From: a virus
Reading direction: 5' to 3' (one strand)
DNA: 64,000 bases
Virus record (IMG/VR): IMGVR_UViG_3300032282_003280
Span: 27,275 to 91,274 of that record
Shown here: positions 19,601 through 46,632 of the stretch, in pieces
How the letters are laid out: each line of letters starts with the position of its first letter
Position numbering within the stretch: position 1 is the stretch's first letter
Translations under genes and position numbers: made by a program
The notes under the pieces: model-generated
Told to the model about the DNA's origin: nothing
Database searches by the model: none
What the model saw: only the letters and a program-made list of their open reading frames with translations

Positions 19601-22600
19601 TGCTCCTGCAGGGTTATTAGGTATGGCAGTAGAAGTTATCTTAGGAGAGACTTTATATAAACCATTCTCTTTAAGTACAAAATCAGAAGTTTTGAATGCA
19701 TATAACCATTCTCTAACCTTTTGTTTTATAGCACTATTTTGGTCTGACTCATTTATCTTAATATCACCATCCATGTTTAACATAGTCCATGCTATAGGCT
19801 TCTGCTTTGAGAAAACATTATAAAACTGTAGTAGTAACCTTAAAGAATCAGAATTAAGGGATGATTCATTAATAGCACCTGTATTAAGATCTATCTTAAG
19901 ACGTGATGCAAGTCTTTCATAATCAGAATCCTCAGATGCTAATTCCTGAATACGCTTAGACATATCATTAATGTCTCTTATACCATTCAGTTTATCATAT
20001 AGTACAGCAAATACTTTATTTAGATAAACTAACTCCATACCAGTATCATTTTTAAATACTTTGGTAAGACCTAAATCATTTTTACCTAGCTTGGAATCAG
20101 TTTTAGGTAAAGACGCAAGTATTAACTTAACAGCATATGGGGAACTCTTCTTAACGTCTACAGTAAACGCTTCAGGAGAGTAATCATTTCTATTAGAGTT
20201 TTCAATATTTATATTAGCAGTAGAAGCCTCATCAAACTCAATATTAAATCTCTTAAGATATATCTTTACTCTATTCATAATTTCCGACCACTCATCATTA
20301 TCAAATGAGCTATAGTCATCTCTTATAGAGTTTAAAGTATCTTCAGATAATATATCCTCTGTATTAAATATTGATTTATCAGGATTGTCTACAATACCAG
20401 TTAATAGTTTTACTATAACATCTTGTATAAGATCATGAGTATCTTCTTGACTATACCCAGGTATAGCACTATATTCTAAAGCAGTTAAGTCTAAAGGTAA
20501 AACTGCTTCTTTGAAACCACCCTTACTTATTTTCTCGAATAAAGAGTTAGTCATACTCTTTTTGGAGAATACACTCTTAAACCAGTTTATTAACTTGTTA
20601 AAGAATCTTAAAACTTTTTCGGATAAAGAAGTTGCCGATAATTGCTTTAATCTATAATCAGCAAAATCATCCGCTAACTTCTCTTTTAGTTGAGCATCTG
20701 TAGCTTTTGAGTACTCAATAGTTTTTCCACGATAGTCCTTAAATAAACCAGATTTAACTCTTTGCTCATTAAGTATTTCTTGTTTTTGAGCTTCTGTTAG
20801 AAAGTACTTCCATACAGCTTCAAATGCTTCGTGATAACCGGTACCGGCTTTAGCATTTTTAAATATGTAAGTAATACCATTAGATAACATACCCCAAGCT
20901 TTTCCACCATCAGTAGTATCAATTAACTCATTAAGTTCTACCATTGGTATCTGAGGTAACTTCTCCTTCATGAAGTTAGCCAGGTCTGCATATTCTGCAG
21001 CACTCATACGAGGTACGTTGGCACTACCTACCCTACTATAATCTCTATTATCCTTTACTTTTCCTTTAGTGGTCTTTGTAACCTTATTCTCAGTTTGACC
21101 TAAATCATTTTGAGAAGGTTGAAGACTTTCAGTAATTGTACTTTCTAAATATATAATAGCAGAATCTACATCAGAAAACCCTCCACCTAATTGATCTTTT
21201 ATTGCAGCCATTAAGAATCTACCATCAGGGAGTTTCTTAAGATTCATTGTCTGTATGGTATTCTTCAAATTCTCCTGATAATTAGGATCTTCCATATCTA
21301 ATATGGCTCTACCCTCATCATCTATAGTATACTTAAACTCAATACCATCATCAAACTTAAATACACCCTCACCCACCAAAGGTTTTTCCTCTTCTATAGG
21401 AGCCTCTTCTACAATAACCTCTTCTTTTTTAGGAGATACTATCTCAGCATTAGAGAGTATTATATACTTCTGGTCAAAGTTATAGTCATTAGGAACACTA
21501 TCAGAAATAGCTCTTACTGATGTATAAAGAGGTATCTCATCTATAGCACGACCTTTATCAGATAATAAGAAATCTTGGTAGTTTTTCCACTCTTTTGTTT
21601 GGGGGTTACCCTTTTCATCTATATCCGTAATCTCATAGAATGAGTCATTAAAGTTATTATCAAGTGTGTATTTGTTTACTTGAAAATAAGCAGCATCTAA
21701 GAAAGATTTTATCTTTTCTTCACCCTCCTTAATACCTTCCTCAGTAAAGAATACTTTTTCTCCTTTATTACCTAATATTAACTCAAAGGTCTCCGGGTTT
21801 ACGTAAATTTGATTTACAGAAGTTTTTGGAGTATCATTCCAGAAAAGGATATTACTCAAGTAACTCATTATAGAAGGATCAAAATTATAATCCTTTGAGG
21901 TACTATTAGCTAACTTTAAGATAAGTTTGTATAGAACATCCTTCTCCCTATTTGTTAACTTTCTATTACGGAGAATATAGTTTGTATCTTCCCACTGAAA
22001 TACTGTTCTTCCTTTAGGTATAGATACAGTTCTACCTTGATGAACAATTTGCCCATCAGGTACAAATAATACTTTATTATTATTTATAACTTTCTCAGAA
22101 GCAAGAGATTTTGATGCAGGTACTCTCTCACGAACACCATTTACTTCTGCAGATGGTATCGCAAATCCGGCACTTAGATTGAATTGGAATTTATCAACTC
22201 CTTTAGCGTTGAATATATCCTCTCTTGTTTTCTTAAAGGATTCTTGAAGTTCAGGATTATTCTTTATTGCAAAAGTAGAAGACATGGTTCCATAAACCAA
22301 TAAAGTAGGGTCAGTCTTTTCTCCAACTTTTCCCACTCTTTTACCTTCTTGGTCAATAAAATAAGCACCATCTTTAGTATCCTCAACTGTAACTAAAGCT
22401 ATTATACCATCTTCAGGAGAAACCCATTTCTCTCTTGGGAAAGTTCCTGCAATATGTTCTATTGCACCATCAATTCCTATAAGACCTTCTTGGTTTAAGG
22501 TAAACCTTATTTGACGTAGGTTTTCTCTATTAGGTAGATTTTTTGCTATACTAGCAAAGTGGAGATACCTTCTTATATGAGAAGGTACATTAGTTAATAC

Positions 22601-25591
22601 TTTTTTAGAATCTGTTGCTGCAGATGTAATAGCTGTAGTAGGAAGAGTTGAACTATAAGTATATTGTTCTGAAGTTTTTTCATTAGGTTTAACATCTGGT
22701 ACTACTTCTTCAGGATCTCCCTCTACTGGAATACCTGATTTATTACTAATTTCCTTTTGAGAATTTTTTAACTTATTTGTCTTCTCACGCTCTTTTGCTA
22801 ACTTAATAGCTTCTTCTGCTGCAAGCTCCTCTTTTGTTTTTTCAGCTTTATACTTAGATAAATCAGCTATATCTATTGTAGAAATATTACCTTCTGTATC
22901 CTCTACAGTAACTTTATTATCCTCTATGGAAGTTACTTTTACAGAACCTAAATTCTTTAGTTTTTCATTTCTTATATCAGCTTCTGCTAATGCATCTTTT
23001 TGATTATCATAAGTAACAACAGTCTCTCCCTTATAGGTAAGGTTGAAGGCATTTCCTTCCTGCATTACTTTATACTCACCCCCTGGTAAAGTTCCAGTAT
23101 AAGTACGACCAACCTGAATACCCTCTTTTTCGTTAGTAGGAACCTCTTCAGAAGGTTCTGCTTCTACATTATATATAGAGTCTTTCCATTTCTTGTAGTC
23201 AGAGGTAAATTTCTCATAACCTTTCTCAGAGAACAAATTATCATAAGCATCCCTAGCTATAACTTTGTCTCTACCTATTCTATTAAGGTCAGCACCTTTT
23301 TCAACTATAGATACTATTTGCTCTCTAGGGATAGACTGAAGATTTGATAAATTCCTATCAGAAACCTCATAGTTTAAAACATCTGAAGCTATTTTTAGTA
23401 AGTTATTCTCATCATTTGAGCTAATTGCAGTAGTTATATTAGAGGAAAGATTATTTAAATGTTGAATCTCCCTAAGAGTAGATACTCTTTGCTCATTTGG
23501 TATAGTTTTTTCATCTATACCTTTCTGAAGTTCTATAGCTTTTTGCTTATACTCATTACTAATGTTTCTAAGAGATTTTGTATCAGATATTCTCTGAGCA
23601 GCAGTATTATTAAGAAGTGGGTTTATAGATAATAACTCCTGAGATATATTATTTTCTCTTGAGGTATAATCCTTCTCCATATAAGAGTAGAAAGATAGGG
23701 CCCTTTTATACTCCTCAAATGCTGAATAATTCTCTGTATTATCTTTCGGGGAGAATGGGTTTTGAAATAAGTTAGATAAGGCATCTTCAGTTTTCTTAAT
23801 CTCACCTGCCTTATTGATTAACATATCTATATAAGAATGAGCACTTTCCTTATCTAACCCAAAAGTCTTAGACAATTCTTCCTGAGGGAGTTCCTTGAGG
23901 AGTTTTAACTGCTCAATCCTTAAATCAAACTGATTATTATCTATACCTGACTTTACAAAATTAAAGAACTCACTAGATTTAAAGTTCTTAAACTCATTTA
24001 TATTATTGTTCTTTACAGCTTCTTGTAGACCTTGGGCATTGTGCAAACTTTGAGCAGTTGCATCAAGTTTATTTGAGAATACAGCACCTATACCATTCTG
24101 ACTAAGAGCATTAATAGTTTTATTTGCAACCTCATCTTCTGATAACTTACCCATTTTTTTCTCTATACGAGATATAACAGGCCCTGTAATAGCACCAGTA
24201 AGACCGCCTATTAACATCTGTTCAAGACCTTCAGATGTACCAAATTGTTGCTTTAAACCTTCTATAGTAGAGTTAATAGCATCTTGAACCGTTAAGTTTT
24301 GTTTAGAGTTATACTTTTTTGTAAAGTAATCTTCAGTACCTTTTTCTACAGCATATTGACCACCCTCTTCAAAAACACCTTCTGTAAATATATTTCCGGA
24401 AGATCTTTTAGTTATATCCCATACTTTTGCACCTAATGTCTCAGGTTTAACAACTTTTAGGTTATCAATAGAACCTAATTCGTCTATAGCAGTAGAAAGT
24501 TTTATTTTTCCAGAACGAATCTCATTCTTTAAAGCAGAGAAAGGTTTTAGTATACTATCAAACTGAAGAGAATTTGATATACTTAATAGAGCTATATTTG
24601 CCCCATACCTAATATTTGCAGAACTTGTAGCTAAGTCTTCAATCTTTGTTAACTCTTCTCCAGTAGGGTTAAATCCATGCTCTGCTATATACTGATTTGT
24701 TAATTTTTCTTTTACATCATTATAACCTTGCCTTGCTTCCATTCCTGCTTCTGCATGTGCAGAAGTATATACACTTAAACCATATTGGATAGGTTTTGTT
24801 ATTTTTACTTGTCCTGCAGAGGCTGCTAAATCATTAAGGGTTAAAAAGTTTTTTTCGGTAGCACCTACAGTTTTCCCTAGATTTAGGACTTGTTCTACAT
24901 CATCAGTTTTTGAGAATATCTTACCAAGATATAAACCTGCTTTTGATACTTGATTTGAAATTAGTGGTATTTCACCTATACCCTCAGTAACAGCACCTAT
25001 AAGCGCATCCTGAACAGCTGCTCCTCCAATTGCACCAATAGTATAACCTAAATTTTTAAGAAACTTATCCCCCCAAAAATTAGCCATACCTGAAGGAGTT
25101 ACAGCACTCATAAAAGGATGTTCCTTTTCCCACTTAGTGTAGTAGTTAGGAAATTTATCCTCTAAGTTCTGCATCCATTTGTCAACCTCAAAAGATGCTT
25201 CATTTTTATAAATATTATCACCTTTAGATGCTCTTATAGCATCTGGAATAGTAAGCATTGCATTAGCAAAAGAACCTATAGCAAGTCCTCCCGTTTTAAC
25301 TAATGAATTACCTATTTGTTTATACCAAGGTTGAGCCTGACCATAAATTTCCTCATTATCTAATGAAGGATTATATATAGGGTACCTTGAAGATTCCTGT
25401 CCTGAGAAAGGGGTAAGTTGATTTGGTTGACCTTGCTCAAGTTTTAATGCCTGTTGTTTAAAAATATCTCCTAGAGACAGTTCTTGTGAAACTGGCTTTA
25501 CACTTGGATTATTTGGCTGAGGTATTGATTTATCAGCATTATAATTATCAGGTATAATTGGATTAATTTGGTTATTTATATCAAAAGGCAT
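13679..25591 (-). CDS. Virion-packaged two-barrel DNA-dependent RNA polymerase of crAss-like phages, with a long N-terminal cargo region and zincin-like domains
   Basis: 3970 aa; GFRIPTQ and catalytic KAGSDFDIDKL (DFDID at 16736-16750); FVDVAKDP; HEAFE (20819-20833) and HESYH (13838-13852). Confidence 0.92.
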   Translation of the reverse strand: MPFDINNQINPIIPDNYNADKSIPQPNNPSVKPVSQELSLGDIFKQQALKLEQGQPNQLTPFSGQESSRYPIYNPSLDNEEIYGQAQPWYKQIGNSLVKTGGLAIGSFANAMLTIPDAIRASKGDNIYKNEASFEVDKWMQNLEDKFPNYYTKWEKEHPFMSAVTPSGMANFWGDKFLKNLGYTIGAIGGAAVQDALIGAVTEGIGEIPLISNQVSKAGLYLGKIFSKTDDVEQVLNLGKTVGATEKNFLTLNDLAASAGQVKITKPIQYGLSVYTSAHAEAGMEARQGYNDVKEKLTNQYIAEHGFNPTGEELTKIEDLATSSANIRYGANIALLSISNSLQFDSILKPFSALKNEIRSGKIKLSTAIDELGSIDNLKVVKPETLGAKVWDITKRSSGNIFTEGVFEEGGQYAVEKGTEDYFTKKYNSKQNLTVQDAINSTIEGLKQQFGTSEGLEQMLIGGLTGAITGPVISRIEKKMGKLSEDEVANKTINALSQNGIGAVFSNKLDATAQSLHNAQGLQEAVKNNNINEFKNFKSSEFFNFVKSGIDNNQFDLRIEQLKLLKELPQEELSKTFGLDKESAHSYIDMLINKAGEIKKTEDALSNLFQNPFSPKDNTENYSAFEEYKRALSFYSYMEKDYTSRENNISQELLSINPLLNNTAAQRISDTKSLRNISNEYKQKAIELQKGIDEKTIPNEQRVSTLREIQHLNNLSSNITTAISSNDENNLLKIASDVLNYEVSDRNLSNLQSIPREQIVSIVEKGADLNRIGRDKVIARDAYDNLFSEKGYEKFTSDYKKWKDSIYNVEAEPSEEVPTNEKEGIQVGRTYTGTLPGGEYKVMQEGNAFNLTYKGETVVTYDNQKDALAEADIRNEKLKNLGSVKVTSIEDNKVTVEDTEGNISTIDIADLSKYKAEKTKEELAAEEAIKLAKEREKTNKLKNSQKEISNKSGIPVEGDPEEVVPDVKPNEKTSEQYTYSSTLPTTAITSAATDSKKVLTNVPSHIRRYLHFASIAKNLPNRENLRQIRFTLNQEGLIGIDGAIEHIAGTFPREKWVSPEDGIIALVTVEDTKDGAYFIDQEGKRVGKVGEKTDPTLLVYGTMSSTFAIKNNPELQESFKKTREDIFNAKGVDKFQFNLSAGFAIPSAEVNGVRERVPASKSLASEKVINNNKVLFVPDGQIVHQGRTVSIPKGRTVFQWEDTNYILRNRKLTNREKDVLYKLILKLANSTSKDYNFDPSIMSYLSNILFWNDTPKTSVNQIYVNPETFELILGNKGEKVFFTEEGIKEGEEKIKSFLDAAYFQVNKYTLDNNFNDSFYEITDIDEKGNPQTKEWKNYQDFLLSDKGRAIDEIPLYTSVRAISDSVPNDYNFDQKYIILSNAEIVSPKKEEVIVEEAPIEEEKPLVGEGVFKFDDGIEFKYTIDDEGRAILDMEDPNYQENLKNTIQTMNLKKLPDGRFLMAAIKDQLGGGFSDVDSAIIYLESTITESLQPSQNDLGQTENKVTKTTKGKVKDNRDYSRVGSANVPRMSAAEYADLANFMKEKLPQIPMVELNELIDTTDGGKAWGMLSNGITYIFKNAKAGTGYHEAFEAVWKYFLTEAQKQEILNEQRVKSGLFKDYRGKTIEYSKATDAQLKEKLADDFADYRLKQLSATSLSEKVLRFFNKLINWFKSVFSKKSMTNSLFEKISKGGFKEAVLPLDLTALEYSAIPGYSQEDTHDLIQDVIVKLLTGIVDNPDKSIFNTEDILSEDTLNSIRDDYSSFDNDEWSEIMNRVKIYLKRFNIEFDEASTANINIENSNRNDYSPEAFTVDVKKSSPYAVKLILASLPKTDSKLGKNDLGLTKVFKNDTGMELVYLNKVFAVLYDKLNGIRDINDMSKRIQELASEDSDYERLASRLKIDLNTGAINESSLNSDSLRLLLQFYNVFSKQKPIAWTMLNMDGDIKINESDQNSAIKQKVREWLYAFKTSDFVLKENGLYKVSPKITSTAIPNNPAGAVQFLNKLGIDFPINVVYNLSDKEKTNLISLANRIKSYANTKDSFKNIRSWQTIGISEPVSEISKLLLKASAEGQEVTSLNVENKRIQNYTGGNRVSSFEFDFNSAETLDELKSLYPELNDSFATNSLILKKDGYFWDEDGNKKKGVNIKVSYAQGFDDNGKGTSTARLTRPNAKLEEINLNAQGTYYVLIPADSSTQWSIDLYDFVSLNSFANPQGAWSKIYTIFQDYLKDEITLAQEYSIRDNNKNVKSKAKELRFFKDILPEGLQTKLSDIILKGENPNDFITENTEEINSSVKFFIEEKVKKSREELTKLNQIRTVEDNVYSIPLLLDSIFNDSKGLVVKDKYNLSSKQVDNILTFSNVNYIIANIEMHKILFGDPYQFKIKDGKLDETKRIKSYLSPRQTTHQSTNVDNMLNNMYNKAGNVELSSNDPGYTQFKPNITTIVTTIANNSEDIFGSLALSGNENYSKVTEADGSSTIMLTAFRQAKIKNGQWDNKQAESWYQWEMAYTRSQLSKKGEYNYSSENLKETDKKTLSKPKPEYKLEVLKSLYTGPKFGKSYIDNVIDKMSQMPLIYSAVEGYPNLEKLFVKMFKEGIDYVIMPSGRKEGIEEENNLYNQDGSFNTNPFNNKVELQWKHWGIQVENSYSDKKQTEGSQSNKIVTIDLFDKGIPTDIKLSKSEWDSLSEDDKKKMSPHYKAVVRFETIKKEKIKNGYYSLLSKIGVIEVPGNFPGTTRYQVVDSEKLANALKSEMYKRDLSDNIIESININPETGDFVIPFEANSSYIKIRDIIWSFVDKSITSPSMSGKALVQVTSLLWEKNGRQAMYKKDDKWEKVTDYEALTDEEKKTVVLTSTDLKFYTKDEPWCEVYLPNWFADKLKKLDIFQDNTDEEIIEYLNKTEEGRSILTGIGFRIPTQGLNSMEVFKVKGFLAPEMGNTVVVPSEITTKAGSDFDIDKLNTYLKNVYVDPFTKDLKLVPYYGVGTEAKEKLREFLDGKFETDALAIRYILSVEKPASKEEADLEKLIDKLYNQSLDNEYIDAMQELLQLPGNFNRLIEPNTSTDLQELASEINKLEMKSEESIKNKLLDRSYMSNLRYAFLTAKKWVGIGAVGITGTSVFQKSSIYIDPSKTENLDSRQNHYIGNGIINLPHNTVTIGGKVYPSLSGVMDKAGKYISNKLSQYINAFVDVAKDPFITDVIYSDKVVSTFMFLERLGVPMSTVAFFMNQPIIKQYVEWVENNEKQILDFVKDEQEFSEGVMNFIEGNNFSGPDVKEPTKFDEGVLKGNILRYNNPKYKSTLDNNFKYQQRQMLKEFFKYFAMAEQLFDFTQAYTYDTTNFRSSDALLRKQLRTEVAKGNIISSIDNLMDSSYVGTDAEYLEKSDLALSEYFKFNSNRISAILDPIKKIYSEKFVKADKFQNIADKITTSFIDYLSQIGAGLSNEVSNLMSGRESVAKKVLQAKSLYPANYLLDLIKIHDTGVEGSAVGIVIKAGSDGYSQDLFTGYLRELRDDIRTFDLYNDIVKAAIIQGIYTSPISFANLIPLEDYAANLAQIMNQIDSIPNLEEFNSQAMFQRQKWRDDDIIPDYLPPYFPATETRGASIPVFTTKVITDENGNKRQVNDLSIIQLNKTYDAKFASKPVIKIRAWAKDKFTGKLKDILTNRSLSTEEIKKARKEGFSPTEYFYGYKKVYNTDGTPLITINYKGEEQFLYKAINLLGDGTSINEYSDIIKPSSFNNNTEKVVELSDEEVVNMIKSSDKYTMKPEIITLKDGKKYQRQTLNLPYLLRLGYTEAEALEILPEFTLKSEDEIKNLAPTQPIGEEVKPNIRPLITVESAKAKGTFRGKPLLFVDGINSPKDKPVAMLNDKGKIVIVESVMRSKFNEKAWTRPSTQKDGSTTTPISENQFSKFEEWFTFALLHESYHDSIKKESTETIGQYEDRINEAALNDLKKNYLGTIISVSGGPTIDITNQNNCG

Positions 25592-28127: not shown

Positions 28128-30260
28128 TTATTTCATAGAATTACCCCACTTAGCCATAGTTTTCTTCAAGGCTATCTTAGCACCATACTTAGCCTCTTCT
28201 TCTGGTTTATTTATAACCTCAGTTCTCATAAGTTTATTATCAGGACCATAAACTTGTTTTGTCTGTGTTTTTGACATTTCTGGGGATTTTGAAGATTGAC
28301 CAGTTACTAGTCTAGAATCAAAGTAATGAGGGTCATTCTGATTAACAAACTGACTGGTAGAAGGGTTATAACGATAACCAAACATATTTTCCATCATTCT
28401 TACTTGATTCTGTTGCTGTTTAGCCTGTTGTACTTTATCCACTATTGAGTTAGCTGCAGCATACTTACGAGACTTTGTAACAGCTTTATTCTTAGCCATG
28501 GTATCTTGTTGAATACCGGCAAATTGTAAATTCTGTAACATTGCACTATTTAGGAGACCTACATTCTTATTGGTAACATCTTCCTGAATAGCTTGGTTAG
28601 TCCTAAATTGGTCTGCAAGTACTTGAGAATCAGCATTATACTTCTGGGCACCTAGTACAGAGAGAGCCTCTGGATTATTGGGAAGTTGTTGAGTAAGAGC
28701 TCTAAAAGTAGAGTTATTTTCATTTAACTTATCCTGAAAAGATACTTGATAAGGAGTATATAAATTTGGTTGATATGAGAAGTGAGGTACATAATCAGGT
28801 CTTTCAGTAAGTGTTACCAACTCTGGGAGTACAGACAGTGGGTTAAAACCCATCTGATCAGCAAGAGATGTCTTTTTTACAGGTTGCATTGCTTTATTAT
28901 ATGCAGTCTGTTCAGCAATTCCTCTATTTAACTGACCTTGAGTAGCTTCTTTAGGGGTAAACTCATTACCAGGAATAGATAGTTCTTGCATTGGACTAAA
29001 ACCTAAAGAAGGCATTTCATTAGTAGTATACTTTTTATTTCCAGAAATTACTACCTCTGGCATTTGATTTATGTATTCTTTACCAGTTGCTTTTTTGTAG
29101 GCATTTTGAAGTTTTAAACTATTTGAGAACTTTAACTTCGAATCATCCCCAAAGTGAAGATGTTCTCCTGTCCAATGTTTAGTTTTTACTCCTCCTATAG
29201 AAGGTGCTTCATTTAAATAACCTAAATCGTTATTGGATATATACTCCATGACTTTAGGATTGTTCATAATAGACTTATTAAAGTCTTCAAAACTTGTATT
29301 ATTTCCAGGTTGTAAATCTACTGCTTTACCTTTTTGATGCCATGAAAAATCACCATCTGGTTTTCTTAGTGCAGAACTTACTTTATAAGGGATACCCTCT
29401 TGTTTTAATAAGTTAAGAAAACCTTGATAGCGAGTATCTAAACCATCTTCGGCCATCCCAAAGTAGTTAAGACCTTCAGGTACCATATTCATACCCATCT
29501 CAGCTTTAGAACCACCTCCTGCTACCCACCCGAAATAACGCCTTTGTTTAGGAGTAAGGGGTTGACCATGCACTGTTCCATCATGAAGAATTTCTCTTGC
29601 TTTCTCAGCAGATAACTGTCCACCGGCAGCATACATGAACTCTTGTGAGGGTGGGTCTACTTTAACTCGTAGGGTACCACCCTTCTTCATCTTCTTAGAG
29701 AGTTCCTGAGGTTCCATACCAAACTTATCGGCAGTACTAAGCATTGCATTCTGAGTAGTAGTCAATGTATCCTTCTGAAGATATGCTAAGTTATTCTGTT
29801 GATTAGCAGCATCTTGTAGAACTTTACCTGTATTAAAACTTAAGGCTTGATAGGGGTTATAGGGGCTGTTTGTATTAATATAGTCAGTAGCCTTAGTTTG
29901 GTTTTTAAAGGCTTTGTTCTCAATCTTTGCTATATCTTTGAATGCAGTCTTAAACTTTTGATTGGTTCCTGGTACTAACATATTACCTCCTACAATAGCG
30001 GAGTTGTCCATTGTTATACCATTATCAGATTGTGTTAAGAATGGTACAATAGATTGATCTCCTCCTCTTTGAGGTTGAATGTGCATAGTTTCCCCTGCTT
30101 CTGCCTCTATGACATTATTACCATAGCGAACCTTAGTACCACCCTTCTCATGAGACTTACCCTTTAGGAGAATAGTATTAGGACTTAACATCTCAAACTG
30201 ATTACCTTCTATCTGTAAACCAGTATCTGCTTTAGGGAGAGATTTTATACGTACCTTCAT
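28128..30260 (-). CDS. Cargo protein with GxSHExGG domain, xxGG-delimited modules and a peptidase M15-like (LAS) peptidoglycan hydrolase domain
   Basis: 710 aa; GKSHEKGG...EAEAGE; SALR...SWHQKGKAVD...EHLHF. Confidence 0.75.
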   Translation of the reverse strand: MKVRIKSLPKADTGLQIEGNQFEMLSPNTILLKGKSHEKGGTKVRYGNNVIEAEAGETMHIQPQRGGDQSIVPFLTQSDNGITMDNSAIVGGNMLVPGTNQKFKTAFKDIAKIENKAFKNQTKATDYINTNSPYNPYQALSFNTGKVLQDAANQQNNLAYLQKDTLTTTQNAMLSTADKFGMEPQELSKKMKKGGTLRVKVDPPSQEFMYAAGGQLSAEKAREILHDGTVHGQPLTPKQRRYFGWVAGGGSKAEMGMNMVPEGLNYFGMAEDGLDTRYQGFLNLLKQEGIPYKVSSALRKPDGDFSWHQKGKAVDLQPGNNTSFEDFNKSIMNNPKVMEYISNNDLGYLNEAPSIGGVKTKHWTGEHLHFGDDSKLKFSNSLKLQNAYKKATGKEYINQMPEVVISGNKKYTTNEMPSLGFSPMQELSIPGNEFTPKEATQGQLNRGIAEQTAYNKAMQPVKKTSLADQMGFNPLSVLPELVTLTERPDYVPHFSYQPNLYTPYQVSFQDKLNENNSTFRALTQQLPNNPEALSVLGAQKYNADSQVLADQFRTNQAIQEDVTNKNVGLLNSAMLQNLQFAGIQQDTMAKNKAVTKSRKYAAANSIVDKVQQAKQQQNQVRMMENMFGYRYNPSTSQFVNQNDPHYFDSRLVTGQSSKSPEMSKTQTKQVYGPDNKLMRTEVINKPEEEAKYGAKIALKKTMAKWGNSMK

Positions 30261-30284: not shown

Positions 30285-33200
30285 TTATTCAAAATCAATC
30301 TGATAACCTTTTGATATCAAATCACTTATTTGGTCAGGAGTAAGATCATAAGTTTGACCTTGTACCATACCTCCATCATCATGTTTCCACTTAGCAGCGT
30401 TCTGTGCAAATATAGCTCTCTTGCGAGTTAATGGGTTCTTAGAGTGGGTTAATTCTTCAGTAGATTTACCTGTACGCTTCTTAAGAGCATTGAACTTTCC
30501 TTTATTAGCAGGGTTAATATGAATACCAGACCTTGCTTCACCACCATAATTCATTACTTCACTATCCATCTGAGGATTAATACCCATACCCATATCTCCA
30601 CCATACTCCATATTAGACATTATCTTCTGCTGAACACTTTTAGGAAGAGCATTGAATCCTGGATTATTAGGTACATTACCACCATACTTAGTCATCTCAG
30701 CTTCATTAGTGTCTATAAGACCACCAAACTCATGCTTCCATTTGGCAGCATTTTTAGCAAAGTTGGCCTTTTGAACCATCAAAGATGAAAACTTATCTTT
30801 GTTTGAGAGAACATGTTTAGCAAATTGTTGAACACCCATACCATGTTTAGTTGCTGCTGCGGTAAAGGTACCTTTCTTTGCAGGGTCTAAATGAATACCT
30901 GATTTAGCTTCTACCATCTGATTATTAGGTTCATAGTTACCAAACGTCTTTTGAGGATCTGGGATATACCTTGGGTTATCATCAAAGTTCTGACCAAACA
31001 TTGCCATAGAAATTGGACCACCATCTTCAAAAGTATAATCTTCAGGAGTTCTATGTTGTTTTACAGTATATGGCATTTGTGTAGGGTCACTATAAGGTTG
31101 CCATTGACTTCCTTGAGAACCTGGGACAAAGTTTTGATATGACTCCCTAAGAAGTTGAGGAGATTGTGTTACCGGTAAACCTTGGTAAGTAGATGGTGAT
31201 GACTGTACATCACGAATGAATGGATAATGTTGATAACCAGCACTTCCTACAGGAGTATATCCAGTAAGGTTACCTGTAACATCATAGTTACCCATATATG
31301 ACATTGTAGGTTCTGGCATAGGTACAGGAACAGCATAAGGTTGAGGTTGTTGCATTTGACCCATACCCATATAATTACCTACAGGAGACATATAAGCATT
31401 ACTAGAAGGTGCTGTTACATCTTCAACTGGTACATCTTCTGTAACTACAATGTTACCTTTCTTTCTTGTTCTAGTGGTATATCCACCATCAGCGTACTTA
31501 TTGTACATATCAGTATTATTTATTAAGTTACCACCATCCTCATATATAGCTTGAGAACCAGTGCCCATTGAATATGGATTATAGTTTGCAGGATTATATC
31601 TACGTGTTGTTCTTTGACTTTGGTTTGGAATAAGTGCATTTAAGAATTGAGTACCTCCACTAGTAATACCACTCAATGCTCCTCCTATAGAACTTGCTAT
31701 TCCCCCAATACCTGATGCTATACTTGAACCAGAAGGCCCTTGACTTTTGGCACTTAAAGGTTCTGCTGTACTATTAGTCATAGCAGTATTTGCATTATAA
31801 TTATTCCAAGGTTGAATTTGCTGCATCATATTCTGATTAGCACCTTGATTTATCCAGTTTGGTTGATTAGGATCATCCATTCTCCAAGGTTGCATATAAC
31901 CACCTGCATCATATGTAGGGGTTGATTGGTAAGGCATCATCATAGTACCATTTTCATATACTTCTCCACCATCTTCCCATGTCTTTCTAGCAAATGCTCT
32001 AAAGTAAGGATTATGAGCTAAGTTATGTTTATGACGAGCATAGAAAGCCTTTTTTCTTTCAGGGTCATTAGGGTGTTGACCTAGTTTAGAATCACCAAAG
32101 TATTTCTTAGTACCATCAGGTCCAATAACAACATGGGTTTTTCCCTTACGTTCATTTGAACGTTTTACTATATAACCACCATTACCATATTCATCCATCT
32201 CATTAGGGACAGATCCACCATCCTCATGCTGAGCTTTAATTTTAGCTTCTTGCTTTAACATCTCTTTAGTAGGTTTTTTACCGGAACCACGGTTTTCTCT
32301 TATGTTATCCCAAAGACCTCTTTGAGAATAATGACCATCAGCTCTGCGAATCACTTCACCTCCATTTTTATAATTAAATTGTGATTCATTTGGTATATTA
32401 ACACTAGATTCTCCAAGGTACAAGTCTTTTAGATTTTTTTTAATTTCATCTGTCTTAGGAAGCAAATTTTTAAATCTTTGTTTAGGGTTACCTTTTACTG
32501 CAGCAATTGTAGGTTGAGTAAAAAAAGGAAATTCTGATTCATTAGTAACTATTTTAGTTTTAGGAAAGTTTAATCCTGTAACTCCATTAACTAAATTAAT
32601 TGGTTTATCAAGTTCTGGTTTATAATTTTCTAGAAATTTATTATATAAACCAATTGTTTCTTTTCTAGTTTGACCTTTAGTAACTATTTCTTCTGTTAAT
32701 TCATTTAAGATATCATTAGATACTCCTTGTTTATATAATTTTTTTGCTTGATCTACATTACCCATTTTTTTTAATTGATCTACTCTATTATTAAAATCTT
32801 GCATTATATCAGGGTACCTATAATACATTTCCATGGGAATAGCTTCTGCAACTCTTCTTCCTTGCGTACCTCCTGTATTTAATTGTTGATTCTCTCCAGT
32901 TCTTATAATTGTAAAATCCTTATTAGCGTTTCTTGCTGCTTGATTCCAATAAAGAGGTGATGAGTTAGCACTCATATTTCTATCAAATGTAGAAGCTCCT
33001 TGTGGTAAACGTTCGACCTCTCTCATCATTTTGTATTTAACTTCTTGTGGAGTCATATGAAAATAAGAGTGAGAAGTTATATCTCCAACATAAGGAATTT
33101 CTAGAGATGCTGCATTTATTGCATTATCTACTCTTTTTACAAAAGGTAAATCCGATGTATTTTTAAATGTATTATAACCTCCTTTTATAACATTAGGTAG

Positions 33201-33629
33201 TGGGGTAACTGTATTAAAAGGTTCCATACCTGAAGCTGCTGCTAATGCTTCTACTGTATGTAGAGCTGCAGGACCATATTCTCCTCTATAAACTTCTTCC
33301 GGTATAGCTGGTGCATTATAAAACCATGCTGTAGGGTTTACTATTTCTGTAGCATAATCTAAGGAGTTCTTATTAGCTACAAAGTTATCAGGTAATCTTT
33401 GTTTATTTAATGCATAACTTGCTGCTGTGGCAGGGTGAGTAACAACATCCCAAGCCTTAGAGGGAATACTTTGAGGATTTACCTGTTGTATATATGAAGG
33501 TTGTTGAGGTCTAACTTGACCTCTTGGATCTCCATACTCAAAATACTGTCTTTGTGGGATATAGACAGGATTAGCAGGTTGATCACTTACCTGATTATAG
33601 TTTACTATATTTTGCTTTTTCTTAGGCAT
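30285..33629 (-). CDS. Cargo/internal protein; polyprotein-like array of small basic modules separated by xxGG motifs
   Basis: 1114 aa; 13 xxxGG motifs in the C-terminal about 690 aa; two copies of the GIHxxPAxKGxF...FAxNAAKWKH module. Confidence 0.7.
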   Translation of the reverse strand: MPKKKQNIVNYNQVSDQPANPVYIPQRQYFEYGDPRGQVRPQQPSYIQQVNPQSIPSKAWDVVTHPATAASYALNKQRLPDNFVANKNSLDYATEIVNPTAWFYNAPAIPEEVYRGEYGPAALHTVEALAAASGMEPFNTVTPLPNVIKGGYNTFKNTSDLPFVKRVDNAINAASLEIPYVGDITSHSYFHMTPQEVKYKMMREVERLPQGASTFDRNMSANSSPLYWNQAARNANKDFTIIRTGENQQLNTGGTQGRRVAEAIPMEMYYRYPDIMQDFNNRVDQLKKMGNVDQAKKLYKQGVSNDILNELTEEIVTKGQTRKETIGLYNKFLENYKPELDKPINLVNGVTGLNFPKTKIVTNESEFPFFTQPTIAAVKGNPKQRFKNLLPKTDEIKKNLKDLYLGESSVNIPNESQFNYKNGGEVIRRADGHYSQRGLWDNIRENRGSGKKPTKEMLKQEAKIKAQHEDGGSVPNEMDEYGNGGYIVKRSNERKGKTHVVIGPDGTKKYFGDSKLGQHPNDPERKKAFYARHKHNLAHNPYFRAFARKTWEDGGEVYENGTMMMPYQSTPTYDAGGYMQPWRMDDPNQPNWINQGANQNMMQQIQPWNNYNANTAMTNSTAEPLSAKSQGPSGSSIASGIGGIASSIGGALSGITSGGTQFLNALIPNQSQRTTRRYNPANYNPYSMGTGSQAIYEDGGNLINNTDMYNKYADGGYTTRTRKKGNIVVTEDVPVEDVTAPSSNAYMSPVGNYMGMGQMQQPQPYAVPVPMPEPTMSYMGNYDVTGNLTGYTPVGSAGYQHYPFIRDVQSSPSTYQGLPVTQSPQLLRESYQNFVPGSQGSQWQPYSDPTQMPYTVKQHRTPEDYTFEDGGPISMAMFGQNFDDNPRYIPDPQKTFGNYEPNNQMVEAKSGIHLDPAKKGTFTAAATKHGMGVQQFAKHVLSNKDKFSSLMVQKANFAKNAAKWKHEFGGLIDTNEAEMTKYGGNVPNNPGFNALPKSVQQKIMSNMEYGGDMGMGINPQMDSEVMNYGGEARSGIHINPANKGKFNALKKRTGKSTEELTHSKNPLTRKRAIFAQNAAKWKHDDGGMVQGQTYDLTPDQISDLISKGYQIDFE

Positions 33630-36600
33630 TACTTATAAGATGGAACAGTTTCTTGGATTACAAATTTAGATATAAGTTTTACACCTGTCTTCTTTAGGAT
33701 ATGACGAAGTTTTGAGTACTTACCTCTTAATGGGTATTTCTTAAAGTCTCTCCTTGAGTAGTCAAGATTTGATACTATGAGGTCCTTCTCATCATTCTTA
33801 AAAGTAACTGGCGTTGTGTAGAAAGGTTTACTCTTATCCTTTACGATATCCCAGAAGTAGTTATAGTTATAGAAGTTATCACTACGCACAACTATAATCT
33901 CCTTATTATCAGTATTATACTTAGGATACTGCAAGTATTGAGATAAGTTATTATATTGCTTAGGTATAAGTTTTAGTACACCTGTACACTGTTCATTGTT
34001 ATAGATTACAGACTCATCAAAGTATTGGATATCATCCGGAATATAGAATGTATCATAATCTATATATACACGAGATTCAGTATAGTCCTTAACAGCTTGA
34101 AGTATCTCATCCTTTACTTTATATACAAATGGGTACTCCAAAATATATGGACACTCTTCTCCATAATAGTTGTTAAAGAGAGTAAATATTCTATTGTGTG
34201 TCCATGTTGCAGGATCATCTCCATTTAGACCACTATGGAAATAGTTTGGGTAAGCTATATAATAGTTAGGGGTAAATGAGTGGAATGATACCCATGACTG
34301 AGTCTTAAAGTTATAAGATAAAGTCCAAGACTTATCTATAAAGTATTTAGGATCACCTACTCGTATCTGAATATTCTCACTACCTGTATCATAGTAAAAA
34401 AGACCACCTAAATATTCTGTTTTATCAGGATATATGGGTTCATAGTCTAACTTAGTTATAAATATACGTTTGTAGAAGGCGTCATATGTACCTGTTAAAC
34501 CAATACCGTTTTGTGCATTATCTATATCCACATCAGGGTAGAAGTTAAGTATATTAAATGGAAGATTCTTTGAGAACCATTTATCCATTCCTTTATCAGC
34601 TAAGTCCTCAATATTAGTACCCTTTAAGAAGATAACCTGACCTCTCTTAGCATCAACAAATATATGACCAAACTCAGTCTTTATAAATAAAGTGTTCTGA
34701 GAACCGGCATAACCTACACTACTCTGGGAGAGGTCTAAAGGAATACTACCTGAGAATAACTGAGTATTACCAAGATAAGCATCAGGACCTTGAGATACCT
34801 GTACAGTAGTAAGAGCGTTATAAAGTTGAGTATTGTTCTCAAACCTTACCATTAATTGTCTATGCTCTATATTATCTATAGAGATCATCTTACCATATGA
34901 CTTAGGAAAATCAAAGTAAGCAGCCGGTCTATACACTAACCAGTTATTCTTTGTCTCCTCTAGGGATGATTTATCGGAGTATATTGCTCTGTTAGGAAAT
35001 TCTGTATAACATTTTTTAGTAGGATCATAATCCTCTCTTAAGTGAGTATATACATTCTCTTTATTTTGCTTAGAGTATGTTTGATTATAGTTATAGGTAT
35101 TGTCATACGCAATTGGAACATTTATTTCTTGGAACCAATCATCCGGAATATTTGTAGATACATTAGGGAAGAAGTTTCCCTCCTTCTCGTTAGTTGCTTG
35201 CCTATTGTCCACATTTACCTCAGATTCACAGAAGAAGTAAGGTACACCATATGCAAATAAAAACATTACACCTTGTTCTGATATACCTACTCTTTGAGAT
35301 AAGTCAAAGTTTATATTTTTTACTCCTATTTTTTCATATATCTGTTTAAATAGATTTGCTATAAACTTATTAGTATGGGCAACTCCCAGTCCTGCACCTG
35401 TTAAAATATTTAAAACAATAAATGCTCCTCCGGGATTAAATAAATCATTAGTTAAGGTAGTAAGTGCTCCTCCTTTATCTATATCTATATCAAAAGATTG
35501 AGGTTTAGTACTTAGCCAAAACATTGGATAATTTATATTACCCAATTCATCATATGCTATATCTGTTTGATTTGGTTGTGATACAGTATTATTAGTAAAA
35601 AATGGAAGTTTTGATTTATATCCAAAAAGGTTTATATAAATATCACCGCCAAATACAGTAGGTGCATTTAAAATAGGTTTATTATCTAAAGTATAAAGAT
35701 CTTGATAATAACCTGTATCTATAGTTTCATATGAATATACTCTTCCCCACTGATTTATAATATCTCTTTTTATAGCTCCGTAATATGAAGATATGTTTTT
35801 TTCTTGTATTGTTTGTAAATTTGATTTTATATCAATCGGTAAATAATCAGGATTAGGTACTAAGTGAAAACCACCATCTGTAAATCCTGTATTAGGGTTA
35901 CTAAAAGAGTAAGTTAATGTAGTAGGTACCAATGCACTTGTAATAGGAGGGACTATTACTAAAGAGCCTATAGGATTAACTATAGGATGAGTAAACCCAG
36001 GGTTTTGAAGATATGTTCTTATTATACCTGTACTTTTATTAGGGATAGTATTTATAGTAGATGTAATGTTTGTAGACTTTACAACAAATATATTACTTGT
36101 TCCAAATTCTTGATAAGCAGTTCCTATTGGAGGAGCTGGATTTATTCCAGGATATTCAACATAAAACCAATATTCTTCTAAGAATTCAGAGTGAGGACTA
36201 TTAATTGACTCTGGTAAATATCGAGAATCATCTATTGGTATAGAAGCATCGTAATTATGAGTAAACTCAAGATTTTTATTTACTTTAAGGTATATAGAAC
36301 TTTCTCTTCTATAATTATTTATATTTTTACTTACTAAATTACCATTTGAATCTATATCTTGAACACCTTCTACTGTATCGTTCAAATACTTATTATAGGT
36401 AATCCCTCTATTTTTATATCCTGCATTATATATAGGAGCATAGTCACCATATATACCAAATGAATTAAAAGAATATCCAAAGTTAGTATATGGAACTAAT
36501 TTTTCAAACATATCCATTGCTGATTGATATGTTGGGGCTACACTAGCTGATGAAAAGGTAGGAGATCCAAACTGACCTGCCCCCAGGGTAAATCCACTAG

Positions 36601-38809
36601 AAGCTGCAATAGCAGCAGCACCTTGTATTGTATTTCGAGTAAGAAACTTATACTCTGCATTATCTTTTACTGGAATAAAATGACCATAAGATTTACCATA
36701 TATTATTTGTTCTAATTTAAGGTACTCCCCTGCGTTTGAAATTGAGGGCTGGTCAAAGTGAGTGTCAGGACTGTGGAATACAAATCTACTTTTTGCTCCT
36801 TCGTTAAATCCTTGTAAAGCCTTATCAGCACGATAAGTTTCCCCATTATCAACAGGTCTAAGTTTTTCTTTTGCATAAAAAGGATCTGGCCTTAAATCAT
36901 TATAAGGATAGTTTGGATAGAGATAAGTTTCTCCATCATAATCAGATTCTCCTACATTATGTAGTATACCTTTAGCAATTATTGATTTATTTGCAGCACG
37001 ATTACCTCTTAATATCTTAAAGCCTTGTATATTATCTTTCTCTTCTTGGGTAAGGTCAGAACTGTTTATAGCATCCCATAATGATCCCATATCTACCTTT
37101 ACTCCTATAGGATAAATCTTATAGGTATTGGTTTGATTAAAGGTAGTACCTGAGTCAGACTCTAGAAGGTTACCATTCTTAGGCCTATTTGCACTATGAA
37201 TTGGAGTAACTAATAAGTCAGGAAACTTGTGATGTCTAATTTTTTGTCCGGCTAAATCTCCCCATATAAATTCATTATTTGGGTATGTATCTCCGGAATC
37301 AGCATTATAACCATCACCACTCTCCCAATAACCAAATTGACCATATTGAAAAGGTCCTACATAACAATCATCATCTTGTTTCTTATTTAGGTACTCAGTT
37401 GTAAACCCTGTTACAGAACCGGTATTATACACTCTCCACTTCTGTTTTCCTTTAGGGTCTTCACAAGGATTTACAGTAGAGAATGAATTATCTAAGTTAG
37501 AGGTACCTACTACTTCACGATCATCATTAGTAGCAATTCTACCAGGTATGTGAAATGACCTAGTCTGTTTACCATTCTTTAGGATAAAACACCCCTCAAA
37601 GGCATATATCTCATCTCGGAAGTAGCCTCTATAGTTTGCTGCATTAGCACCATTGCTATACCCCTCAAAGGTATTATAGGGTATTTGGTAAGTTTCCCAA
37701 TTAAGATTTACCTTAGACCATATCTTCTGATAGTTTATATCCTCATTTTGTCTAAGGATATCCCAACCTAAAATATTGTCAACCTCAAAAATATCCCCTG
37801 CAGTATCATAATATGGATACTTTATTAGTATATCAGCTATATCTAGTTTTATAGGAGACTTCTCTACTCCTGTATAAGTATATCTTATGGGAGCTTTATT
37901 AGTAGTTATTGGGAGAGTTGCAACTAACTCTACAGAAGGTATATTATTTATTGTCTTAACTACAGCCAGATTAAAGTACTCATATAACCCAGATGTATCA
38001 AGGTCATTTATCTCAAGTACTATTGCTTTTGATGCAGGTAGATTATAAGTTGTACCTACCTTTTGTTCAAATATACTAACAGGATTACTTACATTATAGT
38101 AAGATGTATAACCCTCTCCTCTAGAGTTTGCATATTGAATAGCAAATTGATAGGTGCCCATTATAAGTTCACCACCAACTACTACCTCAGTAGCTCTAAC
38201 CTTAGGAACTCTAAAGTTGGGTTGTACATTAAGTTTATTAACATCAAGAAGACCATCTATTTTTATCTTCTTATAATCATTATGAGGGTCAGGCATCTCA
38301 ACCCATGGAAGGTCTTCAAAATCAAGATATCTACGAGGGTTAAGCCCATCTGTCCAATATATTTGAGTAGAACAGTTTGTAGTCTTTACGACTGCCTTCT
38401 TTATTGGGTTATGAATACTAAAGTTTAACTTACCTCCATTACTATATAAAGTACCTGGGATAATTAATTGATTTTGGTTATACAGCTTATCTGAGAGAAT
38501 AGGTATATAAATACACTCATTCTCTATACTGTATCCTATTTGAGATTCTCCTGTAGAGGGATTAGTTATCCAGTATATTATTCTGGATAGGTTAATTATG
38601 TTCCATTGACCTATAGATACAAATCCTTCAGGAAACTCTACACACTTAGTATTACCTGTGTCATTACCATAAGAAACTGAGTTACCATCAAAGTTCTCAA
38701 CATTGGCATTCATGGCCATAGTAAGTTGACCAGGTTGTACCTGTTGAATAACTGAATCTAGGTTTAATCCTATATTAGCACTCTGTATGTTTATTTGGTT
38801 ATCTGCCAT
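33629..38809 (-). CDS. Tail muzzle / stabilization protein (P22 gp10-like, crAss-type)
   Basis: 1726 aa; IYWTDGLNPRRY, GYFRDEIYAF, IRHHKFP, VFGGDIYI, WTLSY...WVSFHSF. Confidence 0.85.
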   Translation of the reverse strand: MADNQINIQSANIGLNLDSVIQQVQPGQLTMAMNANVENFDGNSVSYGNDTGNTKCVEFPEGFVSIGQWNIINLSRIIYWITNPSTGESQIGYSIENECIYIPILSDKLYNQNQLIIPGTLYSNGGKLNFSIHNPIKKAVVKTTNCSTQIYWTDGLNPRRYLDFEDLPWVEMPDPHNDYKKIKIDGLLDVNKLNVQPNFRVPKVRATEVVVGGELIMGTYQFAIQYANSRGEGYTSYYNVSNPVSIFEQKVGTTYNLPASKAIVLEINDLDTSGLYEYFNLAVVKTINNIPSVELVATLPITTNKAPIRYTYTGVEKSPIKLDIADILIKYPYYDTAGDIFEVDNILGWDILRQNEDINYQKIWSKVNLNWETYQIPYNTFEGYSNGANAANYRGYFRDEIYAFEGCFILKNGKQTRSFHIPGRIATNDDREVVGTSNLDNSFSTVNPCEDPKGKQKWRVYNTGSVTGFTTEYLNKKQDDDCYVGPFQYGQFGYWESGDGYNADSGDTYPNNEFIWGDLAGQKIRHHKFPDLLVTPIHSANRPKNGNLLESDSGTTFNQTNTYKIYPIGVKVDMGSLWDAINSSDLTQEEKDNIQGFKILRGNRAANKSIIAKGILHNVGESDYDGETYLYPNYPYNDLRPDPFYAKEKLRPVDNGETYRADKALQGFNEGAKSRFVFHSPDTHFDQPSISNAGEYLKLEQIIYGKSYGHFIPVKDNAEYKFLTRNTIQGAAAIAASSGFTLGAGQFGSPTFSSASVAPTYQSAMDMFEKLVPYTNFGYSFNSFGIYGDYAPIYNAGYKNRGITYNKYLNDTVEGVQDIDSNGNLVSKNINNYRRESSIYLKVNKNLEFTHNYDASIPIDDSRYLPESINSPHSEFLEEYWFYVEYPGINPAPPIGTAYQEFGTSNIFVVKSTNITSTINTIPNKSTGIIRTYLQNPGFTHPIVNPIGSLVIVPPITSALVPTTLTYSFSNPNTGFTDGGFHLVPNPDYLPIDIKSNLQTIQEKNISSYYGAIKRDIINQWGRVYSYETIDTGYYQDLYTLDNKPILNAPTVFGGDIYINLFGYKSKLPFFTNNTVSQPNQTDIAYDELGNINYPMFWLSTKPQSFDIDIDKGGALTTLTNDLFNPGGAFIVLNILTGAGLGVAHTNKFIANLFKQIYEKIGVKNINFDLSQRVGISEQGVMFLFAYGVPYFFCESEVNVDNRQATNEKEGNFFPNVSTNIPDDWFQEINVPIAYDNTYNYNQTYSKQNKENVYTHLREDYDPTKKCYTEFPNRAIYSDKSSLEETKNNWLVYRPAAYFDFPKSYGKMISIDNIEHRQLMVRFENNTQLYNALTTVQVSQGPDAYLGNTQLFSGSIPLDLSQSSVGYAGSQNTLFIKTEFGHIFVDAKRGQVIFLKGTNIEDLADKGMDKWFSKNLPFNILNFYPDVDIDNAQNGIGLTGTYDAFYKRIFITKLDYEPIYPDKTEYLGGLFYYDTGSENIQIRVGDPKYFIDKSWTLSYNFKTQSWVSFHSFTPNYYIAYPNYFHSGLNGDDPATWTHNRIFTLFNNYYGEECPYILEYPFVYKVKDEILQAVKDYTESRVYIDYDTFYIPDDIQYFDESVIYNNEQCTGVLKLIPKQYNNLSQYLQYPKYNTDNKEIIVVRSDNFYNYNYFWDIVKDKSKPFYTTPVTFKNDEKDLIVSNLDYSRRDFKKYPLRGKYSKLRHILKKTGVKLISKFVIQETVPSYK

Positions 38810-46104: not shown

Positions 46105-46632
46105 TTAGTTACATTCGCAAGGTTTGATCTTATCTAATAATGACCATGCTTTTGTATACATATCCATTGCTGAGATAATATCACACTGATTTGCTGCTGC
46201 AACACTGCCGTCTATTAACAATCGTATATTACGAAGTTGTTCTTTAAATCTTGATCTTAAAGTACCATTACACTCACAAGAAGCATCTACTGATAAAAAT
46301 ATTCTCTCATACTTAGCTACTATTTGAGCTATGCGCATGAAAGATTTCTCTACCCAAGTTGTAGCATTTGGTGCTACAGAGTACTTCATTGTGTACACTC
46401 CATCAGGGAGTGGCATTGGTTCTAAGCCACAAGCTATATTAAAATGATCAGCAGTGTATATATTTACAGCACGAGGAGTAAATACAACATTTACTTTATT
46501 CCATCCTCCCGGAGGAGTAATTTCCATTGATACATTTGTAGGTGCTACTGCATAATTACTCAAATCTATAACTCCTAGAGAAGTTACAGCATATGTATCT
46601 AATAAAGTAAAATCTAAACTTGTAGTAGCCAT
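46105..46632 (-). CDS. crAss-type capsid vertex / structural protein
   Basis: 175 aa, LPDGVYTMKYSVAP; Cys-rich end (KPCECN). Confidence 0.55.
   Translation of the reverse strand: MATTSLDFTLLDTYAVTSLGVIDLSNYAVAPTNVSMEITPPGGWNKVNVVFTPRAVNIYTADHFNIACGLEPMPLPDGVYTMKYSVAPNATTWVEKSFMRIAQIVAKYERIFLSVDASCECNGTLRSRFKEQLRNIRLLIDGSVAAANQCDIISAMDMYTKAWSLLDKIKPCECN

Follow-up and report, generated by a model that had tools for sequence, protein, structure and literature searches.

A Gly-Gly joint motif borders shuffled modules in a cargo-type protein of an uncultured crassvirus

Introduction

No other viruses of the human gut are as abundant as the Crassvirales, which are also common in the sea. Infection starts with the action of their cargo proteins, and no other part of the particle is so poorly understood. 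In Bacteroides phage PhiCrAss001, electron cryo-microscopy (cryo-EM) located pieces of the cargo protein C1 (gp45) in both the tail and the capsid, the latter containing a discrete cargo zone; short ordered gp45 segments were bound to the portal, the rings and the muzzle, and a transmembrane segment was predicted (PMC10172136). Here, we analyzed an open reading frame (ORF) of an uncultured Crassvirales phage, found at 30285-33629 on the minus strand of a 64,000-nt stretch of DNA (the window; positions 27,275 to 91,274 of IMG/VR record IMGVR_UViG_3300032282_003280, a 91,274-nt viral contig with a CheckV completeness of 78%). An earlier note on this DNA had described the C-terminal 695 residues (420-1114) of this single unbroken ORF of 1114 residues as a polyprotein-like cargo, punctuated by 13 xxxGG motifs at the borders of small modules and putatively cut there by a viral protease. 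Our analysis upholds the modular cargo-type protein with motifs at its module borders and lends no support to the protease cleavage.

Like gp45, the ORF directly follows the muzzle gene, contains a module termed C (BLASTP to gp45 376-438, E 4e-8, and a second copy, E 0.002; the homology is local only), and has a Gly-rich hydrophobic segment as well as Gly-Gly (GG) joints with a bulky residue. In gp45, these joints lie at residues 209, 263, 332, 427 and 562, and the resolved segments 214-245 and 425-552 lie at or just after them. Unlike in gp45, the CARG1 portal-binding domain (PF25725) was not detected in the ORF or in the whole record (E<=10), and there are far more cassettes, of which A, B, D and E are absent from gp45. 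The ORF is a modular crassvirus cargo-type protein, tied to C1 by its position and one common module but devoid of the defining CARG1 domain. The GG motif is not mentioned by Bayfield et al. 2023 (PMC10172136), and no description of it was found in the literature that we searched.

Results

A GG motif with a bulky residue is enriched in the cargo ORF

All 13 noted pentapeptides were located in the ORF, with the GG at residues 423, 471, 484, 554, 576, 699, 715, 870, 969, 983, 1010, 1029 and 1086. Twelve of them fit [YFWHM]xxGG, the exception being TKYGG, which has a Tyr at position -1. Five additional GG were found, three in a Gly-zipper segment (642, 649 and 658) and two in the N-terminal domain. 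Residues 401-1114 contain 12 [YFWHM]xxGG motifs where 1.36 are expected, and none of 20,000 composition-preserving shuffles reached 12. The remaining 35 ORFs of the window harbor 17 motifs in 18,497 residues, 4 of these in the next gene (28128-30260), and the rest of the genome outside the window (27 kb, replication half) has one. Based on these counts, the motif is real and confined to two cargo-slot ORFs. Similarly, motif density per 100 residues was 0.85 in module proteins, compared to 0.05 in muzzle and virion RNA polymerase (vRNAP) homologs and 0.12 in the other ORFs of the loci.

A protein with 8.7% Gly and several low-complexity stretches could carry such motifs as a by-product of its composition. 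We consider this most improbable, since no shuffle reached the observed count and since, as described below, the GG positions are fixed relative to conserved modules across hundreds of divergent homologs. The GG codons are a mix of GGT and GGA, indicating that conservation acts at the protein level; a DNA-level recombination signal at the joints was rejected on the same ground. The variants AKSGI and ARSGI sit exactly where homologs carry a GG just before the I-H-I start of module C (98/105) and, judged by their sequence, are degenerate joints.

Confidently modeled modules alternate with flexible stretches

An AlphaFold2 (AF2) model of residues 415-1114 was computed from 54 aligned sequences, with confidence expressed as predicted local distance difference test (pLDDT) values. 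The ORF can be divided as follows.

30285..33629, minus strand: whole ORF P0001, 1114 residues; modular cargo-type protein in the C1 (gp45) slot, next after the muzzle gene
32388..33629, minus strand: N-terminal domain, residues 1-414; lineage-specific (5-8 homologs), no family match, two GG only
32214..32357, minus strand: module A, residues 425-472; GLWDNIR signature, YKNGG to HEDGG; AF2 beta-hairpin plus two helices, pLDDT about 60-70
31965..32189, minus strand: module B, residues 481-555; YGNGG to WEDGG; AF2 three strands plus three helices, pLDDT >90; most conserved cassette
31725..31964, minus strand: low-complexity Q/N/P/M spacer, residues 556-635; YENGT variant and YDAGG; pLDDT <50
31626..31724, minus strand: putative transmembrane-like Gly-zipper segment, residues 636-668, judged by its composition
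31032..31625, minus strand: prion-like Q/P/M/Y-rich spacer, residues 669-866; free-standing YEDGG and YADGG; disordered in AF2
30720..31031, minus strand: module C copy 1 plus leader, residues 867-970; FEDGG to HEFGG; three-helix core, pLDDT 97
30597..30692, minus strand: module D, residues 980-1011; PGFNALP signature, TKYGG to MEYGG; one helix
30369..30554, minus strand: module C copy 2, residues 1026-1087; MNYGG to HDDGG; match to gp45 376-438 (E 4e-8) and to 24 GenBank crAss records
30288..30368, minus strand: C-terminal element E, residues 1088-1114; always the extreme C terminus in the family (103/103)

The pLDDT was above 90 in module B, 97 in module C copy 1 and 57-88 in A, D and E, and all intervening stretches were below 50. 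These low-confidence stretches, directly abutting the modules, contain at least 11 of the 13 GG. A second AF2 model, restricted to A and B, agreed with the long one. The Gly-zipper segment resembles the Gly-rich N-terminal region of gp45 in composition, a similarity that is not significant.

Pfam gave no match for the ORF at E<=0.1 and none for its separate parts at E<=1. The only PHROGs that matched, phrog_20603 (E 9e-6), phrog_7595 (E 0.003) and phrog_29070 (E 0.019), have no known function. The match to phrog_20603 is that of module C copy 1, which is also homologous to gp45 residues 332-438. Sequence matches in the PDB (designed pentatricopeptide repeats and MccF) were spurious. Foldseek found no match to the 700-residue model in the PDB at E<=0.001, and VIA-align with the A+B model reached a Z score of only 3.2, so that no solved structure resembles A or B. 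Matches in BFVD were limited to uncharacterized viral proteins of 84-116 residues, the ESM Atlas gave only weak leads (best score 0.86, DUF6321), and tblastn against GenBank phages found no match for A+B.

Every cassette is bracketed by GG at a fixed distance across the family

A search of 5.8 billion proteins recovered 676 relatives of comparable length, as well as 3,498 that were shorter. The homologs have a median of 11 motifs. A profile of A+B gathered 1,226 clusters at 50% identity, with proteins ranging from 120 to 2,409 residues. The recurring cassettes are A (about 45 residues, GLWDNIR), B (about 70 residues), C (about 50 residues, I-H-I start and K-W-K-H end) and D (about 25 residues, PGFNALP). 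Among 240 homologs, these occur in at least 37 different orders, including BA (35), ABC (26), ABE (24), CDBA (16) and DBE (15). Every cassette is flanked on both sides by GG at a fixed distance, as the counts in these homologs show.

Module A: GG upstream in 152/162, downstream in 146/162
Module B: GG upstream in 226/228, downstream in 227/228
Module C: GG upstream in 98/105, downstream in 95/105
Module D: GG upstream in 71/73, downstream in 73/73

The exceptions were mostly cassettes placed at the protein's own N or C terminus, where the outer GG is gone (7/7, 9/10 and 7/9). The rule was reproduced in 85 further independent representatives of 50%-identity clusters, so that 325 homologs were covered in all. 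This is in good agreement with the placement of the motifs at module borders that had been read from the single ORF.

A bulky residue (Y, F, W, M or H) precedes 74% of the family GG at position -3 or -1, compared to 27% expected. Double joints are frequent, with two GG separated by 4-8 residues and a short acidic connector between them; in 27% of cases, successive GG are at most 10 residues apart and the short connector is often acidic. No family protein ends at a GG, the last one being followed by a conserved tail of 6-10 residues. Tail element E was at the C-terminal end in all of its 103 occurrences and internal in none, in line with the special role that the earlier note tentatively gave to the C terminus, and represents a candidate docking handle. 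Motifs were also found in low-complexity spacers and as short N-terminal leaders of small proteins.

Relatives carry cell-wall enzyme domains (Amidase_2, YkuD and SLT, PF01464), and homologs carry PF25725 (crAss_CARG1). Module C is present within C1 of IAS virus and of PhiCrAss001 (gp45 376-438). In crAssphage cr53_1, it also forms a 77-residue gene of its own in the midst of the head genes, preceded by a leader that ends in Y-K-Y-G-G. Together with phrog_20603 and the small BFVD proteins, this bears out the suspicion that some modules exist as independent small genes.

Other crAss-like contigs have a small gene between those of the ring proteins R2 and R1, in which module A comes right after the Met and is extended by a Lys-rich tail; as many as nine junction motifs are spaced 2-5 residues apart along this tail. 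Four such genes, each made of module A and a Lys-rich tail, are the following.

L055:9998-10525
L074:9992-10507
L077:9995-10234
L079:9992-10873

The ORF occupies the slot of cargo protein C1

All structural genes of the phage lie on the minus strand, and the context of the ORF is fixed by the muzzle gene upstream of it.

33629..38809, minus strand: muzzle protein gene, 1726 residues; PF25731 (crAss_MUZ), E 6e-33
28128..30260, minus strand: cargo-type neighbor, 710 residues; four junction motifs, module F in common with homologs

The muzzle gene is followed by the ORF under study and then by ORFs of 710, 822, 3970 and 1690 residues. This block matches the order in PhiCrAss001, namely, gp44 (muzzle), gp45 (cargo C1), gp46 (cargo C2) and the RNA polymerase giants. 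Among 79 related IMG/VR loci, nearly all have the module gene directly after the muzzle gene or one gene later. The other structural genes encode a P22-like portal, a Crass_capsid major capsid protein and the ring proteins R3/4, R2 and R1. Based on this gene position and on the homology to C1, we infer that the protein is packaged in the virion and ejected, as its earlier designation as cargo implied.

The 710-residue neighbor harbors an SxHxxGxAxD...HxH signature with a weak Peptidase_M15_4 match (E 0.061, below the cutoff). Its residues 16-68 read G-x-SHE-x-GG, like the start of the gp45 portal-binding domain, and weakly match a home-made CARG1 hidden Markov model (domain E 0.0023); BLASTP against gp45 was not significant. 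As far as these sequences go, the ORF and its neighbor may together represent a split or expanded C1.

Further features were noted in the window. At the large-terminase position (56035-59136, minus strand), a 1033-residue protein has a LAGLIDADG/homing-endonuclease insert at residues 318-402 (PF14528, E 1e-11; PF05204, E 3e-10), probably an intein or a fused homing endonuclease. A 931-residue protein (4100-6895, minus strand) with 22% Gly contains seven collagen triple-helix repeat stretches (PF01391, E 5e-53), and downstream of its gene, 2048-3796 encodes a glycosyltransferase family 2 plus tetratricopeptide repeat protein. The tail gene block includes an endolysin-type gene (46632-47162, minus strand) with GH108 and PG_binding_3 domains (E 2e-23 and 2e-13).

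No protease of the expected families accompanies the joints

For the viral cysteine protease invoked in the earlier note, no counterpart was found in this record. With a cutoff of E<=1, Peptidase_C5 (PF00770), C48 (PF02902) and C39 (PF03412) matched nothing in its 91,274 nt, which are 78% complete; the prohead proteases S77 and S78 (PF03420 and PF04586) had no match in the record either, and Pfam scans of 20 ORFs of the structural block revealed no peptidase. No HExxH is present in the ORF or its 710-residue neighbor. Additionally, the cryo-EM model of gp45 residues 425-552 is continuous from A425 through F426-G427-G428-W429, which is the joint after module C (PMC10172136).

The 3970-residue ORF in the vRNAP slot (13679-25591, minus strand) has no Pfam match and contains a single HExxH, at residue 3914, near its C terminus; this region matched no Pfam family and, by tblastn, no GenBank phage. 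Drobysheva et al. discussed a fused form of polyprotein (bioRxiv 10.1101/2020.03.07.982082), for which we regard this ORF as a candidate.

gp45 is not seen in gel bands 1-10 of PhiCrAss001 virions

We reanalyzed the matrix-assisted laser desorption/ionization peak lists of bands 1-10 of the 13 virion gel bands (Source Data of Shkoporov et al. 2018, PMC6235969); band sizes given in that paper range from >300 kDa down to 15 kDa. After recalibration of the lists on trypsin peaks, we compared them with 28 PhiCrAss001 proteins, using shuffled sequences as controls. Nine large virion proteins were recovered, with the following band assignments.

Bands 1-2: gp44 with gp34, gp40 and gp35
Band 3: gp47 (43 peaks) and gp50
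Band 4: gp49 (45 peaks) and gp44
Band 5: gp20, the portal (9 peaks, z 2.6)
Band 6: gp26 and gp22
Band 7: gp22 and gp25
Band 8: gp25
Band 9: gp23

The recovered proteins place bands 1-9 between >300 kDa and about 70 kDa. For gp45 (90.8 kDa, up to 12 copies like the portal), z did not exceed 0.1 in bands 1-10; at full length, it would comigrate with abundant fiber proteins. In the bands above 300 kDa, the muzzle gp44 was found together with gp34, gp35 and gp40, representing a tail complex resistant to sodium dodecyl sulfate in a reducing gel. This fits the disulfide-stabilized tail reported in 2023.

Discussion

The reading that we tentatively favor, as possible rather than firmly supported, is that the product of the ORF is a cargo protein carried in the virion of a crAss-like phage and ejected during infection, in which the motif serves as an uncut cap-and-hinge joint. 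The C-terminal 700 residues would form beads on a string: cassettes of 25-70 residues (A, B, two copies of C, and D), each folding independently, interspersed with disordered spacers rich in Q/N/P/M/Y, together with a Gly-zipper segment and a C-terminal tail that is locked in position. At each joint, a Tyr, Met, Phe, Trp or His at position -3 or -1 would cap the adjoining module, and the following Gly-Gly, most likely left uncut, would act as a hinge, allowing the string to be packed and threaded out. Cap and hinge together would make the cassettes autonomous, so that recombination could swap them. Several observations weigh against this reading. A plain hinge needs no bulky residue, yet such residues are in clear excess at the family GG. 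Some motifs have no module that they could cap, namely, those in low-complexity spacers, in N-terminal leaders and in the tandem arrays of K-rich proteins. Furthermore, the double joints with their acidic connectors recall multicore precursor peptides, and gp45 is the one large virion protein not seen in the bands of about 70 kDa or more.

The last two points would suit a processing code, in which the motifs are cleavage sites and the string is a true polyprotein, from which small basic modules are set free either within the head or once the protein has been injected. A GG with an upstream hydrophobic residue resembles known sites, such as the Gly-Gly-Xaa cut by pS273R of African swine fever virus (ASFV) (PMC9950752), and the modules are autonomous, freely permuted and sometimes encoded alone. 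The protease could be a packaged zincin-like domain, a host protease or one of the cargo's own peptidase domains. Fused crAss RNA polymerase polyproteins were called "likely cleaved" by Drobysheva et al., who also reported a zincin-like protease domain in phi14:2 gp65 (bioRxiv 10.1101/2020.03.07.982082), autoproteolysis of polyvalent proteins was proposed by Iyer et al. 2017 (PMC5512222), and the 3970-residue neighbor has its one HExxH. The presence of gp45 pieces in tail and capsid alike (PMC10172136) and the failure to see full-length gp45 in the large gel bands would also be accounted for, although the latter may reflect masking by the comigrating fiber proteins. However, none of the C5, C48, C39, S77 and S78 families was found in the record, no family matches the HExxH region, and the cryo-EM model passes without a break through the gp45 joint at 427-428 (PMC10172136). 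If the tandem motifs, spaced 2-5 residues apart, were cut, the fragments would be di- to pentapeptides, which are meaningless as products; the vRNAP-type giants, thought to be cleaved, show only background motif density; and family members never end at a GG but continue into their conserved tails. We therefore consider a processing code rather unlikely. The more specific proposal that the joints are the code of a phage zincin-type protease, a host enzyme or the cargo's own cell-wall peptidase is, in our opinion, unlikely as well; speculatively, the last of these would treat the achiral Gly-Gly like D-Ala-D-Ala. If it were true, crassvirus cargo genes would encode true polyproteins releasing dozens of small basic peptides, and the gp45 pieces in tail and capsid would be explained without a chain threaded through the portal.

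The motif might instead mediate docking or cohesion, either by binding a repeated site in the particle (portal, inner capsid face, scaffold or tail rings) or by making cargo chains stick to one another and so form the DNA-free cargo zone. The motif would then be a multivalent tag for packaging, similar to the cargo-loading peptides of encapsulins. Its confinement to cargo-slot proteins and its free occurrence in disordered spacers, tandem arrays and small-protein leaders would be expected from such a tag, and aromatic residues or Met plus Gly within Q/N/Y-rich disorder resemble the sticker-and-spacer pattern of condensate-forming proteins. The capsid cargo zone of PhiCrAss001 and the short ordered gp45 segments on portal, rings and muzzle are also consistent with docking, but none of the three ordered gp45 contacts was reported as the motif on a repeated site (PMC10172136). 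The strict bracketing at a fixed distance and the loss of the GG at protein termini suit a joint better than a free tag. We judge docking to be quite unlikely and retain the uncut joint as our working model.

The joint rule, present in at least 1,200 clusters at 50% identity, offers a simple sequence tag for injected proteins of uncultured phages, and the joints map the natural cassette borders along which cargo proteins can be dissected. Whether or not gp45 is full-length in virions, the outcome would be new, being either a GG-specific phage processing system or an uncut joint for threading through the tail.

Known systems share some of these features. The adenain consensus has a Gly-Gly with an upstream hydrophobic residue in adenovirus precursors. 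Similarly, in ASFV pp220 and pp62, which are cut by pS273R, the virion-core components are bordered by a Gly-Gly with a hydrophobic residue upstream (PMC9950752), as are the modules of the ORF. Unlike in these viruses, no gene for a clan CE cysteine protease was found here, and the bulky residue is an aromatic residue or Met at P5 or P3 instead of a Leu or Ile at P4. In T4 and phiKZ-like phages, injected internal proteins are marked by a short repeated motif, and a gp21/gp175-type prohead protease cuts after Glu. Unlike those genomes, this one has no S77 or S78 match and its portal is P22-like; P22-like phages are not known to have a head protease.

Polyvalent proteins of phages and conjugative elements differ from the ORF in having a hallmark zincin-type metallopeptidase domain, either in the polypeptide or in its partners (the ORF contains no HExxH, and the one in the 3970-residue neighbor matches no family), and in their domains, none of those listed being matched by the much smaller modules of 25-70 residues described here; the words "linker" and "crAss" are absent from the text of that study (PMC5512222). 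Nevertheless, like the family analyzed here, polyvalent proteins are long multidomain proteins delivered with the DNA, and their domains occur in combinatorial orders.

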